Position numbers and translations under genes: made by a program | Notes under the pieces: generated by a model | The model's input: only the letters and a program-made list of their open reading frames with translations | Told to the model about the DNA's origin: nothing | The model's database searches: none | Shown here: one piece after another, positions 3 through 18,165 of the stretch | How the letters are laid out: each line of letters starts with the position of its first letter | How positions within the stretch are numbered: position 1 is the stretch's first letter | Assembly (NCBI GenBank): GCA_010093995.1 | Contig: ML992501.1 | Span: 1 to 64,000 of the forward strand | Length of the DNA: 64,000 nucleotides | Direction: 5' to 3' | Source of the DNA: Elsinoe ampelina | Lineage: Eukaryota

Positions 3-362
3 CTAGTTATTTAGAAGTTAAGGCTATAGAAGATTATTATGTTATTAAGTACTAAGGCTAAATACCTTACCCTTACTAAGACCTATAGAGAGATTAATTA
101 GTTAAGAAACCTTATTATTAAACTTAGGCTACTTACTAATATCTACCTTAGTCTAACTATAGTTTTTATTAATAACAAATTAGCTATTAAACTTATAAGA
201 GATTATACTAACTTAAGAAGATCTAAGTATATTAATCTAAAGAATTATTACTATAGAGAGTAGTATAAACTTAAAGTAATTAAGCTTAAGTATATTAATA
301 TAACTTAGTAATTAGCTAATATACTTATAAAGCTTAAGTCTCCTAATAAGATTCTTAATTAA
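3..362 (+). pseudogene. Copia pol C-terminal RNase H domain (RIP-mutated)
   Basis: The frame from position 3 reads LVI*KLRL*KIIMLLSTKAKYLTL...IN*LRNL...INNKLAI...RSKYINLK...**LANILIK. Reversing G>A and C>T changes gives W-KS-LQK-V-LSSTEAEY-AL...WLRNL...DNKSAI...RSKHID...QLADILTK, the canonical Ty1/copia RNase H motifs. Confidence 0.92.
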
Positions 363-501
363 TTAGTAAAGGCTAATTACTTAGTATATATCTATACTAT
401 ATACTTATTTAGATTTTATATATATTATTATTTTAAGTATATTATTTATACTACTACTACTTATTAAGCTATCTTATTTGTCTAAAGCTTAAAGTAAATT
501 A

Positions 502-792: not shown

Positions 793-1792
793 CTTATAAG
801 CTCTACTATATAGTTTATTACTATAGTAGCTAAGTTATAAACCTTAGTAGTAGTTAAGTTAGTAGGATCTATAAAGTTTATAGGGACTACTATAAAGTAG
901 CAAGAGTTAGTATAAGTTATTAAGGTATTAACTATACCTAATAATACCTCTAGTATATAGGCCCTTAGTAAGAACCTCTAAGGTAAAGTACTACTAAAAG
1001 AGATAGACCTTAGAAGCTCTATTAGTAGGTATATTAGGCTATATAAAATAGGCTAGGTAATAACCCTTAAGCTACTTAGAGTCCTTATAGGTTTAGGAGA
1101 GCTAATAGGCCTTAGAGTTAAAGTATAGTTAGCTAGGAAACATCTAGTATATTAGTTACTATAAGTATAGTAAGTATAGATCTTATTAAGCTAACTAGGT
1201 AAAGTAATATACTTACTAAACTTACTACTCCTACCCTTACTCTAATTATCGCTAGAGTTAGATCTCTAATACTTAGTATAGTAATTAGTGCTATAGTAGA
1301 CTACTCTACTAGTAGTACTAGAAGCTATTAAAGTAGTAAAGTAGTTAGTAGATCTAGTAAAGTTAACTTACTTAGTTAAATCCTTAACTAGAATAGGATT
1401 AGTAACTACTAGGTATACACTATAGGTACTAAAGGCTTAGACTACTATAGACCTCTAGATAGAATATAAGTTAGTATAGTTATAGTAACTAATTATTCTA
1501 AGCCTAAGGAGAGTATTCTAGATTATATCGGCTAACTATTAAGTTAAAGTCTAAGTTAATTAGGCTATTAATGTTAGCTTATGCTATTAATGCTTTATAG
1601 CTACTTACTAAGAGTATTAAGACAAGTAATTAGTCTTATAGTAGTATTATAATTAATATTAGAAGTACTAGGTAACCTTAATAGAGAATTTCTCTTCTTA
1701 TTACTACCTCTACTACCTAGTAAACTACTTAGAGCACTAGCACTAGTAGTAATGCTACTAATACCTAGCTATTACTATACTATAGTACTTAT
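793..1792 (-). pseudogene. RIP-mutated, intron-containing putative secreted-protein gene lying antisense inside the copia element
   Basis: Minus-strand TATATAA at about 1837-1843. ATA (probably a RIP-mutated ATG) at 1792, then an Ala/Ser/Leu leader and AAG AAG AGA (KKR). A 44-nt GTAAGT...GCTAAC...TAG intron at 1608-1565 joins the two best-reading frames in phase 1. One frame then runs to the gap with only TAA/TAG stops, which RIP can make from CAA/CAG/TGG. Confidence 0.6.
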
Positions 1793-1952
1793 ATTATAAG
1801 TGTTATTAATATAGTATAGTAAGAAGGTAAAAGTGTTATATAAAAGAAAAGGCTACTACTATAAGTATAATAAAGGAAGGAGAAATTATAAAGAGACTAG
1901 TTAGATACTTATATCTCTTTAATTAAGACTTATAAGCTAGTCTATTTATATA

Positions 1953-2204: not shown

Positions 2205-2214
2205 AGAGGGGGAG
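2205..2214 (+). promoter_or_regulatory. Polypurine tract (plus-strand primer site) of the copia element
   Basis: AGAGGGGGAG directly abutting the TG that starts the LTR. Confidence 0.9.
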
Positions 2215-2356
2215 TGTTATAATAGAAGGCTAGTACAGCTTCTCTAGTACTAAAGAACTGGCACTAATAAGTCAGCGTACGCATAGTAGATAAATCGGTT
2301 ATTGTAACTCTCTGAATAAAACACACGTCTCTCGATCCGATTTGCCAGTTACAACA
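2215..2356 (+). repeat. 3' LTR (142 bp)
   Basis: Starts TGTTATAA and ends TTACAACA (reverse complement TGTTGTAA), an 8-bp terminal inverted repeat with one RIP-type G>A mismatch. AATAAA at about 2315-2320. Follows the PPT. Candidate TSD CTTGG at 2357-2361. Confidence 0.88.
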
Positions 2357-2845: not shown

Positions 2846-3483
2846 GAGGTCACGGGTGATATCATGCGTACTGCAGAACCCATGGCTCATGGACATGTGT
2901 CCTCAGTGACAGCTGCACATCCATGCGGCTCTTCACCCCACCAGCCACCGATTAAGAGCGCCAGTAGTCACACTTGCCACCCCTGAGAGCATTCCCGAGA
3001 CCAGACTTGCCGCACAAGCCACGGCTCCGACGGGAGCACTCGGCCACGAGGGTAGGCGACCAGGATACTTGGCAGGGGTACGACGAGAGGCATACAGAGT
3101 TGATCAGCTCACGATGGGTGAAACCGACGGGAACGGTGGTCGGACATATAGTGCATGTAGAGTGACTTTTGCCCTCCAATCTGGCGGACTGGATTGGTTT
3201 TTCTCGCCTCGATTTGTACAATGTGATGTGCCGGCAGCTTGCTCGTGAAGCAACAAAAGCGAGTCCGACTCGAGGTATCTGGTAGGTAATTCCGATCGCA
3301 TTGGTTGGCTTTGGCGGTCATTGACACAACCTGAACGGCAGCCATGCTCCGAGGCACGTGCACAAAATTGCTGCTGCCGCCTTTGCCACGTCTTTCCGCG
3401 TCACGCGTTTCGCCTTCGCCAGATACAGCACATTTGCTCTTTACTGATCGAGACGATTTCAGAGGGCGTGTATCTCGCCCAGC

Positions 3484-5745
3484 ATGTTCTATTCGCACGA
3501 GAGTCAGTGGCACACCCCCCGCCCAATATCTGCTGCTGACCATCGATAGTCCTGACCAGTCGCAAATATGGAGTAGCGACGGTATGGTGAGTGTCAGATG
3601 GTAGCCAATTGCTCTGCCCTAGCTAACCAATTCACAGGCTTGTCGCTACTTTGGGCGCCAGTGAGGCTCGACGCAAGCTCAACAAAGCAGAGATACAGAA
3701 GGTCGACGTCCCAAAAGCCTGCGAGACCATCACGAATCCCGAAACACCCCTAGCACTTCGTCTGCAAAGCAACCTCCTCTTCGGCGTCTCAAAAGTCTAC
3801 TCACAGCAGTGCATCTTCGTCCTCAACGATGCAGAACATGTCCGGTCACAAGTACGCAGCGCTTTGGGAGTCATCCGCGCGGCGACAACGACCTCTTCCA
3901 AACAGCATCTCGGCAAGAAAGACCAGATTAATTTACCTGACGATCCTAATTTCAACCTCGAGCTCGACTTGCTTGTTGATCTTGACGAGTTGACGACCAA
4001 CGCAACGACCCGCATACCGGATTCCAATCTAGAGAGCCTCAATCCTCAGTCCAGCCAGCAATCTTTCGAGCAGGATTTCGCGGCTTTGACACAGGACAAT
4101 CCGCTCTACTCGGATGGTATCTCAGTCGGCGAGAATTTCAGATCACGCACAGAGTCCAGAGCAGGGAGTGTACATGATGGTCCAATAAGTCGACTTGGTA
4201 GCGATCACTTGAATGAGAGCACACAAAGACGCCTTCTGGATGATGTCGGCTTTTCTGTCGGCGAAGATGGGACTATCATTGACGATCCGCCTGCGGGGGC
4301 GGTCGCGTCAACAGACACAGGTGGAGCTCTCCTCGGGCAAGACGACATGATGGAGGACAGACCAGCCGCTGACGAAATACGAGACCACATGGTATGTTGA
4401 CAGCCCTTTGGCGCGAGATGTGGATCTTCGGCTGACCACAATCTCTCTTCAGAGTGATCCACAGCTTCCTCCGCTCGATGACTTCCATCTCTTCCCAGAT
4501 GCCCAAGCTTTCTCTCCTCGCCCGCAGCAGCAGGAGCAGCCGGATGTTGACCTACCAACTGGATCCGCTGCAGAAGTTCAGCAACAAGAAGATGAGGATA
4601 CTCCTGCCCAAGCACATGAGCAGTCAGCGGCTGCTCCGAATCGTGCCCAGCGCCAACGTAGGACGCTGCCTCTGGACTCTCAAATGGAGCTGCGCAACCA
4701 AGATATCTCGGACTGGAATGACAACTACGTACAGCACATGCAGCGAGATGCTGCTCATCGTTTCCATCAACGTAATGCTCATGTTGCGAGGATCAACGCC
4801 CAGGCTTGGCTCAATGGGGCTGGCTTGCTGGGAATTGGAAACCTTTTAGCCAATGACAATATCCCAGCTGCTCTGCGCATGTTTGCAGGTCCGAACATTC
4901 TCACTCCGCCTGACACACCACCTGATCATGGAAGTCCTGTATCATCCAAGCGGGCACGTTCAAACTCTTCGACATCTTCGTCACGGAGAGTTAGACCTCG
5001 CCTGACCTCGCAGGATCTGGAGCAGGGTCGTGGTAATGCCGGCGACGTCCAAGTTCCTCAACTCGACGACGATTTTGCGGTCGGGGCTGCAGACGAAGCT
5101 GAGCTGCCGACCGAAGTAGGTCGAGAGGCTCAGACCCCACTGGCCGATCGTCAGTCGTCGCAAATGCCATGGAACTTGTCCCACGGATCGTCCGCCCAGC
5201 GTCGCTTCAACTTGCCTACTGGCGGCTATGGTAGCAGTAGTGTCGCTGGTGCACCGCTCAGCCAGGGATTGAGAGGAAGCAGCATCGCGCCCAGTCCACT
5301 TCTGGGACGCGATCGACACGCGGAGGAAGAGGGCATTCTGGGAGAAGAAACGTTTCAGCTGCCCATGGATGATACCGCCATGGAAGATGCAATGCCTACT
5401 GGAGAAGATGAGAGCCAGCTGGATTCGCAGGGAGTCAGACGCAGCAGCCTCCCATGGGCGGTCAAGACGATGGACACAGAACAGCTCAACTTTGTGGCTT
5501 TTCTCATGGACAAGATCGATGAGAAAAGAGCCACAGAGCAAGACGGGCAAGACGGGCAAGAAGGTATCGCGCTGACATTCGAAGAAGCCTTTTCACCAAA
5601 GAATACAGACAAGGTAATCGCCAGTCAGGCACTCATGCACATCTTGGCCTTGAACGGCAGGAACGTGCTTAAGGTCGAGCAGGACAATGACGAAGGATTC
5701 CGTCCGATATCCTTGACCGTACTTGAGGGTACTGCACCGGCATGA
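3484..5745 (+). CDS. rec8: Rad21/Rec8-family kleisin, meiotic Rec8 type (exons 3484-3502, 3550-3586, 3638-4391, 4453-5745)
   Basis: The spliced N-terminus MFYSHEILTSRKYGVATVWLVATLG...PLALRLQSNLLFGVSKVY is the Rad21/Rec8 N-domain. The C-terminus has the winged-helix motif ASQALMHILAL...VEQD. Introns are canonical. Confidence 0.85.
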
Positions 5746-14754: not shown

Positions 14755-17700
14755 TCAGTAACCTGGCGCCGTTGTGCGACTCGTGACTGGTAGCAAATGT
14801 CCTCCGTTAGCCCACACCGACTCACGCCTGTAACGACTGACGTTGCTATATGCAGACTTGACACTCTGCATCTCGACACTCTTCCTGTATTGCTCCTCGC
14901 TGGTGACTTGGACACGAGGGGTATCCTGTCTCGGTCTCCGCTCCCAGACATGGCGGAGCATTCGCCTCCAAGCATCCCCCAAGTCGTCGAGAGACAAAGC
15001 AATGGCAATCATAGGGATGGAGATGGCAAACCCGATGCCGAATATGTATTTGAAGACGTAGCCCATAGGCAGTCCCCAATCGTTCTGTGGATCTCGTGGC
15101 AGATCGCGGATATTGATGGTGAAGATGCCGGCAATGAAGCTTAGTGGCAGGAAGACGATGGTGACAATGGTAAAGACCATGATAGTCTGGCTCTGTTTGG
15201 CAGTGCCAGCGGCTTGATCTCTGGCGAATCTGGCCTCGAAGGCGTTGGCATGCTTCTGCTTCAGGTCCAGCAGATTGGTGATGGAATCGTATATACGAGC
15301 AGCCTGCTTGTCCATACGATCGAGATCTTTGACGGTCATATCGATGGCCCGGACCTGATCCCTGACACGGCGCTTGACTTCCTGCTGATTCCGCTGCTCG
15401 TCAAGGTAGATCTCGCAGATGGCTTTGCCCATGTCGTCTAGGATATGCTTTTGATCATCCAAGACCTTGTTGATCATGTTGATCTCGTCACGAATATCCT
15501 TGGACTCTGCTAGCAGGTCCGTCTCCTTTCCAATGTCTAACAGTTGGTCGACAAACATTGGGTCGGTCCTTCGGTCATCATCAAACTCGAATTTTGCATC
15601 GTGACCATTGGGTGAGGTACGATTATGCCATTTCTGTTCATGTTCTTTTGCCCTGGTAGTGCTTTCAAGGTTTTTGCTGAACCTGTTCGGTTTGCGGTGA
15701 TTTAGTAGCCAGTCTGAAGCTGAACGTGAAGCGTCGTTGAATTCGGTGAACAGGTTGGTTTCCCGATCTGTAGCATTGCCTATGCTAGACTCAAACATGT
15801 CCAGGAACTGATAGTCGCCATCTCCGAGTCTGTGCCTGTCGAACACTCCCGTACAGCGTGCTGTGATAGTGAGAGCCAGATCATATACCGACTTGATCGG
15901 ATCGCGGGTCTTGCAGTTTACGTCTTCGATGATCCCGTCAAGCACGTTCAATGGATCGTTACGAGGCTGATTCCATCGTTGCGGAAAGCAGGTGACTACC
16001 AGATCTTTTCCAAGAACCCATAGCCACAGTTGATCGACCATGAATATCTTTGGATCGCAGGTGTGACTTGACCCTTGGTTAGTGTACTGATAGCGATATA
16101 CCACTTGATCTTCGTCTCGCGAATCTGTGTCGATATTGTGATAGAAGAATTGATCCAGGGTACGGCGGACGTGTAGGGACGTCGAAGAACCAGTAACGTG
16201 AGCTCTGATGAGCATCTCATCAGAAGTGAGCTTCCGACCATGATGATCAGTATTGATCTTGGATTTGGCTTTGCAAATGGCTTCTTGCATTTGCCGTCGC
16301 GCGGAAGAGGTTTCGAAATGCAGGAAAGGAGCGAAACAGAAAAGATTGCTGCGCGGCTGAGTCTCGACAGGCTTGAGGCCAAATGGCGATTTGGGTCTAG
16401 TAGGCGTGGGAGTATCAATCGGTGCCCAAGGCTTCTTCATTTGGCTGAGTTTGGGCGTGCTTTGACCATCTTTGCTGGAAGCCTTCTTGTTCATCTGTGG
16501 GCGAGTATTTGCTTTCCGGGGCTTTCGTCGTGTTGAATCGCTACTATCTTTTGACGGACCGCCCCTCTCGTTGATACCGTCAATTGCAGAAGTGATCGTG
16601 GTTGCGTCACTAGAAACAGCCGTAGCACCAGTCATAGCTCTCTCAAGCTTCGCTACAGGAGTCGGCTCTTCGGCATTGCTACCAGCACTACTTTCATCCA
16701 GCTTTGAGAACGGCACTGCTCTCGGAGTGGTCTGGCACATGGGCCGCATGAAATGGGAGTGCACCTTCAAACCTCGATGCTGGTTTGAGAATGACTTCTC
16801 GATGGCCTTGAATCCATCGACGTCATGATTGCCCTCTTCGACGAAGCACTTTGCCATTAATGCCTCCACCCAAGCAATGTTGTTTGCTGGTAGGTGAATC
16901 CATCGAAAATTGGTCGGCTTGCAATTGGTGGGCAGGGCTTCGAAGGCTGCCTTGCGAGGGTTGTCCACAGCTCTTCCGTAGAGCAGCTCGTACATGGAGA
17001 TGCGCTTGACTTGGTTGCCATTCTTGTAATTGCCAAAGTCCGTGACTGTCGCAAAGAATCCTTGACAGGCACCAAGAGCATCGTAGGACAGAGAATCGCT
17101 GTGATTGCAAGGAGCCAGGAGGTCCACGCACGCTGAGTGCTTCTGCTGAGCGGCGAGCAAGAAGGCCGTGAAACCAAAAGAGTCTCGGGCGACGCGGCGG
17201 ATGCCTGGCTCACCCAGCAGGATCTTGAGGACTTCCTCGTGACCGGACTCTGCAGCCGCATGAAGCGGAGTCCTACCAGAGAAGAGTCTCGCATTGACGT
17301 CTGCGCCAGCTCTGAGCAGCGTCTTGACAATTGTGGTGTTGCCTTGAGCGCAAGCATTGTGCAGAGCCGTCCAGCCACCTGTGCTCTTTGCCTGTATATC
17401 GGCACCGGATTCGAGGAGCAAATCAACCAAGTCGTCCCTGTTGTGAATGACCGCCATATGCAACGGTGTCTTTTGGCCTCGCTCGATAGCATTGACATTG
17501 GCACGTGGGGATAGTTGTCTGTACAGAAGCTTCTGTGCGAGGACCATCTTGCCAGTCGCACAGCACCAATGTAGGGGAGTGCGCATAAGCTCATCTTGCA
17601 GATCTGGGCCTTCCAAGGAGACGTCGGTGTTTAGCAGGAGGTCGATGACTTCCTGACCCCAGTCGCATTGTTTGTCCGCAGCGAGGTTGTGTAGTACGGT

Positions 17701-18165
17701 GCGGCCCCGGGCGTCTCTTGCATTCACATCAGCTCCTGAGCTTAAGAGCAATTGTAGGATGTGGTAGTGATTCTTCCATGCCGCTGTCATGAGCGCTGTC
17801 CGACCCTTCTTGTCCTTCTCATTTTTGTTGACTGGGTTGACCCTATTTTCCAGCAGGACCTTGACAATGCCAATGTGATTGCGCTCCACGGCTCGCATGA
17901 GGGGGCCGACTCTGTTTCCATACCCGTCTGGCCTGGCTCCTTGCTTGAGAAGGAAGATGGTGGCATTGAGCTTGCCTTTCTCTGCTCCTTTCATCAAACC
18001 AATCTTGAGTAAATTGTCGATGGGCTGGCCGTTCTGCTTTGCAAAATCCAGGAGGTCTTGCAGACCAGACACGCTGTTCTCCTCGACGCAACGGATGAAG
18101 CTGGGCTCGAGTCGTCGTTCGTTGTCGCCGGTTCCATCGCTACCACGCGACCGGTCTCGAGGCAT
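14755..18165 (-). CDS. Ankyrin-repeat protein with C-terminal CorA-like two-helix membrane domain
   Basis: Multiple ANK motifs (GRTALMTAA, TPLHMAV, GWTALHNAC, GRTPLHAAA). Central WIHLPANN / RRTLDQFFY / MVDQLWLW segment. TM segment FTIVTIVFLPLSFIAGIF. Confidence 0.85.
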   Translation of the reverse strand: MPRDRSRGSDGTGDNERRLEPSFIRCVEENSVSGLQDLLDFAKQNGQPIDNLLKIGLMKGAEKGKLNATIFLLKQGARPDGYGNRVGPLMRAVERNHIGIVKVLLENRVNPVNKNEKDKKGRTALMTAAWKNHYHILQLLLSSGADVNARDARGRTVLHNLAADKQCDWGQEVIDLLLNTDVSLEGPDLQDELMRTPLHWCCATGKMVLAQKLLYRQLSPRANVNAIERGQKTPLHMAVIHNRDDLVDLLLESGADIQAKSTGGWTALHNACAQGNTTIVKTLLRAGADVNARLFSGRTPLHAAAESGHEEVLKILLGEPGIRRVARDSFGFTAFLLAAQQKHSACVDLLAPCNHSDSLSYDALGACQGFFATVTDFGNYKNGNQVKRISMYELLYGRAVDNPRKAAFEALPTNCKPTNFRWIHLPANNIAWVEALMAKCFVEEGNHDVDGFKAIEKSFSNQHRGLKVHSHFMRPMCQTTPRAVPFSKLDESSAGSNAEEPTPVAKLERAMTGATAVSSDATTITSAIDGINERGGPSKDSSDSTRRKPRKANTRPQMNKKASSKDGQSTPKLSQMKKPWAPIDTPTPTRPKSPFGLKPVETQPRSNLFCFAPFLHFETSSARRQMQEAICKAKSKINTDHHGRKLTSDEMLIRAHVTGSSTSLHVRRTLDQFFYHNIDTDSRDEDQVVYRYQYTNQGSSHTCDPKIFMVDQLWLWVLGKDLVVTCFPQRWNQPRNDPLNVLDGIIEDVNCKTRDPIKSVYDLALTITARCTGVFDRHRLGDGDYQFLDMFESSIGNATDRETNLFTEFNDASRSASDWLLNHRKPNRFSKNLESTTRAKEHEQKWHNRTSPNGHDAKFEFDDDRRTDPMFVDQLLDIGKETDLLAESKDIRDEINMINKVLDDQKHILDDMGKAICEIYLDEQRNQQEVKRRVRDQVRAIDMTVKDLDRMDKQAARIYDSITNLLDLKQKHANAFEARFARDQAAGTAKQSQTIMVFTIVTIVFLPLSFIAGIFTINIRDLPRDPQNDWGLPMGYVFKYIFGIGFAISIPMIAIALSLDDLGDAWRRMLRHVWERRPRQDTPRVQVTSEEQYRKSVEMQSVKSAYSNVSRYRRESVWANGGHLLPVTSRTTAPGY

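Follow-up and report, generated by a model that had tools for sequence, protein, structure and literature searches.

A degenerate minus-strand former gene beside a long terminal repeat in Elsinoe ampelina, and the copia-type element that may have carried it

What fills the space between the end of a copia pol gene and the long terminal repeat (LTR) that follows it in the fungus Elsinoe ampelina? The locus lies at the start of a 64,000-nucleotide stretch of DNA (assembly GCA_010093995.1, contig ML992501.1, positions 1 to 64,000; this whole stretch is called the window below). The window opens with the tail of a Ty1/copia-type pol gene and, after about 1.85 kb of extra sequence, reaches a polypurine tract (PPT) and an LTR. 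An earlier note had taken the extra sequence to be an antisense, intron-containing gene for a secreted protein, carried as cargo by a copia retrotransposon. In this work, we find that the minus strand holds a degenerate former coding region directly upstream of the PPT and LTR. We regard it as about an even call that positions 793-2214 are the PPT-proximal internal region of a high-copy LTR retrotransposon, killed by repeat-induced point mutation (RIP), that carries a wrecked antisense gene of the type known as ‘aORF-3R’. The host element is most likely the Ty1/copia family to which the RNase H tail at 3-362 belongs.

The material consists of the window, the contigs of four public sequencing runs and published papers. 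The first run (X1) is a DNA run. The other three (X3, X4 and X5) were treated as RNA-like, because their contigs contain spliced joints in the flanking genes.

A former coding region on the minus strand

The argument begins with three features:

1-2214: RIP-mutated block, AT-rich, with a GC content of 0.15-0.32
795-1367, minus strand: main stop-poor former open reading frame (ORF), 191 codons with 6 stops, open into the assembly gap
1368-1564, minus strand: upstream part of the same frame, stop-dense with weak periodicity, 8 stops in 65 codons

AT-rich DNA in the window is confined to the first 2.2 kb. The RIP index, (CpA+TpG)/(ApC+GpT), is 0.07 for 1-501, 0.09 for 793-1845 and 0.22 for 1846-2214, compared with 0.67 for the LTR at 2215-2356 and about 1.3 for the rest of the window. 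The supposed cargo is thus as RIP-worn as pol, as had been claimed. RIP makes transitions only, so the original pattern of purines (R) and pyrimidines (Y) is preserved, and the purine periodicity of a former reading frame is unaffected by it.

The strongest stretch is the minus frame from 1367 to 795, in register with position 2213. A run of 191 codons with no more than six stops was reached, in any of the six frames, by only 2 of 3000 dinucleotide-preserving shuffles. The pol frame next door is less well preserved than this, with seven in-frame stops in 120 codons. The purine content by codon position in 1367..795 is 0.60/0.44/0.35 (p=3e-6; matched by 0/500 shuffles), which resembles the 0.61/0.49/0.38 of seven host ORFs that served as a reference. 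The adjacent spacer at 1801-2214, which is equally RIP-worn, has no purine periodicity (p>0.4). An R/Y Markov model trained on 21 host ORFs ranks the minus frame first for 793-1367 and the pol frame first for the pol tail, although it is a modest classifier that finds the correct frame for 14/21 left-out ORFs and for 33/51 chunks of 570 nt.

Purine periodicity alone is blind to strand. The stops are not: the in-register plus frame has about 23 of them over the same codons, compared with six on the minus strand. A stop-rich plus frame is expected if the minus strand is the sense strand, since RIP turns Leu codons into CTA and TTA. We therefore hold with good confidence that the minus strand carries a degenerate former protein-coding region, and that this region lies directly upstream of the PPT and LTR.

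Could the open frame and its periodicity simply be accidents of RIP-biased, low-complexity sequence, with no gene at all? Sequence of this kind is TA-rich and repetitive, with abundant splice-like and TATA-like motifs. A 55-codon stop-free run in the candidate first exon described below is within the range of shuffles (mean 45, maximum 89), and no homologue of the product was found. These points are outweighed by the rarity of the main run and of its periodicity among shuffles, by the blank in the neighbouring spacer and by a purine pattern that matches host genes at each codon position. An accident of this kind is highly improbable.

The minus frame is still open where it enters the gap, and a loose contig end before 793 adds a few further stop-free codons (judged by eye). 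The frame of about 250 codons that had been described does exist, at 256 codons, but it is stop-poor only in its last 191. The upstream part, 1368..1564, may hold a further intron or indels.

Transcription was sought in the RNA-like runs. No contig of X3, X4 or X5 falls on 1-1800, and 1827-1977 is matched by a single contig of 151 nt with a depth of 2; nor is any RNA dataset listed as containing the segment. This blank says nothing about expression, the more so since intact copies would fall under 80% likeness and so escape placement.

The element around the coding region

The former coding region is flanked as follows:

3-362, plus strand: RIP-degraded C-terminal part of the RNase H in a Ty1/copia-type pol, read in the frame +3 translation
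363-501, plus strand: AT-rich sequence after the pol frame, where the 3′ non-coding region starts; a loose tandem repeat of 26 nt occupies 383-477
502-792: assembly gap of 291 N, unbridged by contigs
1793-2204: spacer without coding periodicity on either strand, which would hold the promoter of a minus-strand gene
2205-2214, plus strand: polypurine tract AGAGGGGGAG, 10 bases, abutting the LTR
2215-2356, plus strand: LTR of 142 bp, TGTT...AACA, with imperfect terminal inverted repeats, partly RIP-mutated

Both boundaries of the LTR are confirmed by exact loose ends: contigs break at 2215 in X3, X5 and X4, and at 2356 in X1, X5 and X4, so that each boundary is seen in three of the four runs and at least one of them in all four. 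The purines of the PPT abut the LTR, and the tract ranks third in length among the purine runs of the RIP block. The PPT and LTR that had been placed at 2205-2356 thus stand. No LTR copy scored above shuffles inside 1-501 or 793-2214, in either orientation and with R/Y-coded sequence, and a search of metagenome contigs for an exact 36-base stretch of the LTR gave 0 matches.

An AATAAA at 2315-2320 was considered as a mark of the orientation of the LTR and rejected. It depends on an A at 2318, where about 75% of the X1 depth and 5/5 X3 contigs have a G, and it is therefore a RIP product private to this copy.

Orientation matters for a reading in which the element is inverted, with 2215-2356 as the 5′ LTR of a minus-oriented retrotransposon, the ORF as its gag (followed by protease) and the change of coding phase described below as an indel. 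The ends of the LTR are symmetric (TG..CA) and thus orientation-neutral, the AATAAA that would favour the plus strand is private to this copy, and a gag gene could well begin, as this ORF does, about 420 nt from the LTR. The ten purines next to the LTR are on the plus strand; on the minus strand they are a pyrimidine run and not a primer-binding site (PBS). After the LTR on that strand, neither the FunCo1 PBS nor the GalEa motif CHSeq1, as given in the available part of Donnart et al. 2017 (PMC5445492), was seen by eye. We consider an inverted element decidedly unlikely, and return to its gag-like features with the product.

Several side observations concern the LTR. A TG insertion behind 2312 is found in one X1 contig and one X3 contig. 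The LTR also occurs in GC-normal, transcribed contexts, where it is flanked by unrelated sequence in contigs of X3, X5 and X4; in a 959-nt contig of X4, for instance, it occupies positions 250-391. The X3 depth in the LTR bin is about 4x that of the neighbouring gene. In these extra contexts the transcripts seem to contain solo LTRs, or else LTRs from other subfamilies. Four different junctions have a run of five G (or five C) no more than about 10 nt from the LTR end, namely the left and right flanks in the window (2205-2214 and 2360-2364), the left flank in X5 and X4, and the right-flank consensus of X1 (agreement 0.54). Such runs might mark a preferred target or belong to a larger repeat unit, or they may be coincidental. 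In the spacer there is a 62-bp tandem duplication (1953-2076, 92% alike), and the differences between its copies include two adjacent transversions (CC and GG), so these are not wholly due to RIP.

At the other end of the block, frame +3 at 3-362 has motifs that, judged by eye, we take to be those of an RNase H tail. The final motif, A-N-I-L-I-K, is two RIP changes away from ADxxTK, one TpG>TpA (D>N) and one CpA>TpA (T>I); ADxxTK is given as the RNase H end motif in the available part of Donnart et al. 2017 (PMC5445492). Here the three codon positions have purine fractions of 0.63/0.49/0.44 (p=0.011). The frame thus reads as a copia RNase H that ends at about 362, as had been proposed. The copia assignment is made from this tail; the reverse transcriptase, the other pol domains, the 5′ LTR and the PBS lie before the window begins. 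No frame of 363..501 has a coding score. Database searches with the pol tail gave 0 matches in Pfam, 0 matches among 475 candidates when compared with longer proteins, which had been intended as a positive control, and two chance matches in the Protein Data Bank (PDB; E>1). RIP has erased any detectable similarity of this tail to copia pol.

The read depth of the segment is informative about how these parts belong together. In X1, 3914 contigs were placed at >=80% likeness. The mean summed word depth, which is not itself a copy number, is 83.7k for the pol tail, 78.9k for 901-1800 and 74.8k for 1801-2100, whereas the single-copy flank has a depth of 118-160. The LTR has an estimated depth of about 188k, or about 2.4x that of the internal region. 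Variant sites are each covered by 6-36 distinct contigs, and all listed variants are transitions. The segment is clearly multicopy. It had been argued that the cargo was multicopy along with the element, and the ratio of summed depth between ORF region and pol tail, 0.94, agrees with this. The contrary case, single-copy host DNA hit by RIP leakage, is excluded by the depth. A flat profile of 1 : 1 : 1 : 2.4 is the expectation for one LTR element family, and the ORF is likely to be part of the same copia element as the pol tail.

The favoured reading has to be weighed against a number of points, the first of which concern the gap. In none of the four runs does a contig span 502-792, so the 1.85 kb between pol and LTR is confirmed in its flanking parts but not as a single piece. 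Loose contig ends are found at 491 and 500, continuing behind, and at 793, continuing before. Beyond 500, the loose end (two X1 contigs) terminates in an all-purine run of 19 bases, about 150-170 nt past the pol stop, whereas the longest purine run inside the RIP block of the window has 14 bases. It is conceivable that this run is the true PPT of the copy that bears pol, and that the LTR of this copy lies unseen within the gap. The depths carry the limit given above, and the ORF has been read from one copy.

These observations suggest that two elements may meet in the gap. The pol-bearing copia would end there with a short 3′ UTR, a PPT and an LTR of its own. A second element that shares this LTR would contribute 793-2356 as its 3′ part and would own the antisense ORF; it might be a non-autonomous partner, for example, or the whole might be a tandem LTR-int-LTR-int-LTR array. 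The 19-base run is where the PPT of a normal copia element would be, an assembly could plausibly break at a repeat of 142 bp that has the highest copy number, and RNA contigs of X5 and X4 have the same LTR after a different, GC-normal sequence with a G-rich run, so that the LTR has more than one left neighbour. That said, the depths of pol tail and ORF region agree within 6%, which would be a coincidence for independent internal sequences. The length of 291 N resembles a paired-read estimate and not a fixed filler, which suggests that the two sides are linked, and only about 100 nt of the gap would be left for the 5′ internal part of the second element. We think that two elements are unlikely here, and continue with a single copia element as the favoured host.

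Another possibility is that a foreign transposon (a DNA transposon of the Tc1/pogo or hAT kind, or another mobile gene) was inserted backwards into the 3′ region of the copia element, so that the ORF is a transposase. Counting the gap, about 1.8 kb separate the pol stop from the PPT, as much as a Tc1/pogo element measures. Short introns can occur in fungal transposase genes, and an N-terminal Cys/His-rich stretch could be a zinc-binding DNA-binding domain. In practice, no inverted repeat was found between 341-501 and 1801-2214, plain or R/Y-coded, with scores at or below the shuffle mean, and no terminal inverted repeats were found within 793-2400, although one end could sit in the gap. There is no depth step between ORF region and spacer, where independent copies of a transposon would raise the depth and a partial insertion would lower it. 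No Pfam transposase domain was found either, which is a weak argument because of RIP. A nested transposon, which the earlier note had named as a case that would overturn its proposal, is improbable on this evidence, and the antisense gene is better read as a part of the LTR element.

Beyond the LTR, a small host gene begins near 2520, about 165 nt from the LTR end. Elsewhere in the window, a single-exon ORF of 1136 residues at 14758-18165 on the minus strand corresponds to ankyrin-repeat clusters of Ascomycota in Atlas (score 0.99). Neither plain blastn nor a transition-blind blastn on R/Y-coded sequence detected paralogues within the window that exceeded the reversed-sequence control.

Candidate exons, candidate intron and product

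The gene model and the product involve four further features:

1609-1792, minus strand: candidate first exon, 61 codons with 3 clustered stops and an in-frame ATA as start
1565-1608, minus strand: candidate 44-nt intron, GTAAGT ... GCTAAC ... TAG, joining both coding phases in frame
1122-1307, minus strand: stretch rich in codons of the Tyr/Cys/His class (YRY), 13 of 62 codons
1062-1121, minus strand: Ser/Thr/Pro-rich stretch, 9 of 20 residues as they stand

Upstream of the main frame, a second coding phase, in register with position 2212, spans about 1840..1570. The purine content by codon position in 1792..1610 is 0.71/0.50/0.34 (p=2e-4). A model with two phases has a log-likelihood of 19.8, compared with 1.9 for the best single frame, a difference of about 18 log units. 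By purine periodicity the change point is best placed at 1534, with support over 1584..1517. A model with the 44-nt intron is 1-3 log units under this optimum and 17 above the best model without a change. The intron is thus compatible with the phase change, but not pinned by it. All candidates with GTAAGT, CTAAC and YAG that start in the change zone share the donor at 1608, and the 44-nt one fits the phase. Three donor sites of the minus strand have a full intron candidate, the plus strand has no such site, and the shuffle mean is 0.34. A right-length candidate at the phase change also speaks against the inverted element, where this change would have to be an indel. A second intron-like candidate with GTAAGT, CTAAC and TAG lies at 1371..1318 on the minus strand; it is 54 nt long and in frame, and its removal deletes one in-frame stop.

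The remaining points against the favoured reading concern this gene model. The best-placed change point falls 30-70 nt further downstream than the candidate intron. Five GT..AG introns are documented in the flanking host genes (2643-2690, 3281-3340, 3503-3549, 3586-3636 and 4391-4451, from spliced contigs of X3, X5 and X4), and with 47-61 nt each of them is longer than the 44-nt candidate. GTAAGT, CTAAC and TAG are all readily generated by RIP. The whole frame after the intron, 1562..795, contains 14 stops in its 256 codons, eight of them in the first 65. There is no ATG at the start; an ATA at 1792 is in frame and may be a RIP product of ATG, which leaves the mutated start as a possibility, and three stops follow at codons 6-8 after it. 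Finally, Pfam recognised 0 families in eight read-through translations (with X at stops), and a phmmer search with a 335-residue read-through of the minus frame gave 0 matches among 1.84 billion representatives. These nulls say nothing about the novelty of the product, because the positive control with the pol tail failed too.

Two smaller claims can be dealt with briefly. The small-residue leader and the K-K-R site (1699-1691, minus strand) are both present. The minus-strand TATA box is uninformative, as TATAWA occurs 8x on the minus strand and 13x on the plus strand in 793-2214.

What was the product? YRY codons make up 21% of the codons in 1307..1122, whereas their share is 9% in host ORFs and 7% elsewhere in this ORF (Fisher p=0.003, for a region picked after looking). 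After RIP, a TAY codon may go back to TGY (Cys) or CAY (His) or may have been TAY (Tyr) all along, and these origins are indistinguishable. The domain described earlier as containing Cys, Tyr and Gly is seen here as a YRY-rich stretch, in which the identity of the Cys residues is ambiguous among Tyr, Cys and His. A Ser/Thr/Pro-rich stretch does follow it, where a linker had been described. Together, the two stretches fit a Cys-rich module plus linker, and equally a Tyr- or His-rich one. The codon classes that are immune to RIP have an ordinary overall composition. None of the Cys spacings of CBM1, hevein, hydrophobin or zinc-knuckle domains fits under RIP-allowed changes, in an informal comparison by eye with consensus patterns.

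The YRY stretch is also relevant to the inverted element. It lies about 200 codons into the frame with a C-x2-C-x4-H-like spacing (by eye), which resembles the zinc knuckle of gag, and a depth equal to that of the pol tail would be expected if gag and pol belonged to the same family. The fourth zinc ligand is absent (an AGG codon), and no protease motif like D-S/T-G could be derived by eye in the 110 codons past the stretch.

It had been proposed that the copia family mobilised a gene of host type, and that this cargo encodes a secreted, Cys-rich effector, toxin or cell-wall protein. In its most far-reaching form, this reading would have a Ty1/copia family of a filamentous ascomycete pick up an intron-bearing cellular gene in antisense, for a secreted protein with a Cys-rich part and a Ser/Thr/Pro linker, and amplify it to hundreds of copies before RIP. 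An enrichment of YRY codons is what is expected if TGY codons for Cys became TAY, the Ser/Thr/Pro-rich stretch is next to it, a small-residue N-terminal stretch and K-K-R are there as written, and an intron candidate suggests a gene of the cellular type. Nevertheless, TAY arises equally from Tyr or His, and the N-terminus as it stands has no ATG, has stops at codons 6-8 and lacks a basic n-region. Small secreted effectors are usually taken to be under about 300 residues. The frame here already comprises no fewer than about 320 codons (61 + 256) where it enters the gap unclosed, a length unsuited to a small secreted protein. Neither a homologue nor a domain was found by phmmer or Pfam. We regard a secreted product as very doubtful. 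The product is better read as that of an accessory gene of the element, of unassigned role and without a recognisable family.

Related elements and implications

If the favoured reading is correct, the gene would have had its promoter in the spacer at 1793-2204, a first exon at about 1792..1609, an intron of 44 nt at 1608..1565, and a second exon from 1564 to at least 795, continuing into the gap. It would be transcribed antisense to the genomic RNA of the element. In that RNA the splice signals would be reversed, so that the intron would be kept through reverse transcription. The gene would then be copied at each retrotransposition, perhaps up to hundreds of copies, until RIP ruined both gene and element.

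Arrangements of this kind are known. The available part of the review of Vicient & Casacuberta 2020 (PMC7264820) describes ‘aORF-3R’, an antisense ORF between pol and the 3′ LTR, in the plant Ty3/gypsy elements Grande1, RIRE2, Retand and PvRetro13. The gene described here is similar in that the ORF is opposite to gag-pol and before the PPT and 3′ LTR, its function is unassigned and the family is of high copy number, although the link to pol spans an unbridged gap. The hosts are quite different, with Ty3/gypsy elements of plants on one side, and a copia-type RNase H tail with a short copia-like LTR in an ascomycete on the other. Furthermore, the plant ORFs are defined by conservation across copies, whereas a single copy was read here, and introns are not mentioned in the available text of the review, whereas a candidate intron is present in our case.

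A closer taxonomic parallel is brtn, an additional antisense gene that Boty-like retrotransposons carry in Botrytis cinerea and Sclerotinia (Zhao et al. 2011, Virology 417:248, as cited in the available part of PMC7264820); a preprint on Botrytis mentions it as well. The earlier note had associated antisense ORFs with plant Ty3/gypsy lineages; this is sound as far as it goes but incomplete, as the fungal case is also in print. Boty and the present element are both LTR retrotransposons of Pezizomycotina with an antisense extra gene downstream of pol, a likeness of layout. Boty is a Ty3/gypsy element, unlike the copia-type tail found here.

Among copia elements, the fungal clades GalEa and FunCo1 offer a comparison. 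According to the available part of Donnart et al. 2017 (PMC5445492), fungal GalEa elements have LTRs of 138-311 bp with TGT..CA borders and a length of 5.4-7.0 kb (mean 6.1 kb), compared with 4.9 kb or less in animals. GalEa and FunCo1 share with our element the TGT..CA LTR, which at 142 bp is within the GalEa range, the RNase H end of the ADxxTK type, the occurrence in Pezizomycotina and the exposure to RIP. In view of the length of fungal GalEa elements, an extended part outside pol may be unexceptional. The same part of the paper describes them as having ‘a large single ORF’, with no extra or antisense ORF mentioned, and this too tells against an antisense gene in a copia element. In a full-text search of the literature, judged mostly from titles and the openings of abstracts, we found no published description of an antisense extra ORF in a fungal copia element.

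In plants, the copia-type Sireviruses have env-like extra ORFs between pol and the 3′ LTR, which are on the sense strand and without an intron. They share with our case a copia-type element and an extra ORF in this position; unlike theirs, the ORF described here is antisense. The layout is probably one that is already known from plant gypsy elements and fungal Boty, found here as a variant with a copia-type tail.

The copy described here is dead and its product is past identification; its practical value lies in pointing to a family that is worth seeking intact in related fungi. If the secreted-cargo reading were true, the retrotransposon would be both vehicle and amplifier for an effector-like gene. 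If the gene belongs to the copia element, the layout with a backward extra gene extends to a fungal copia family, which suggests a repeated origin. The locus would also be an example of an antisense intron that survives reverse transcription. It would also show how a gene other than pol can be brought to hundreds of copies by an LTR element, and fungi may have amplified genes by this route before RIP erased the copies.

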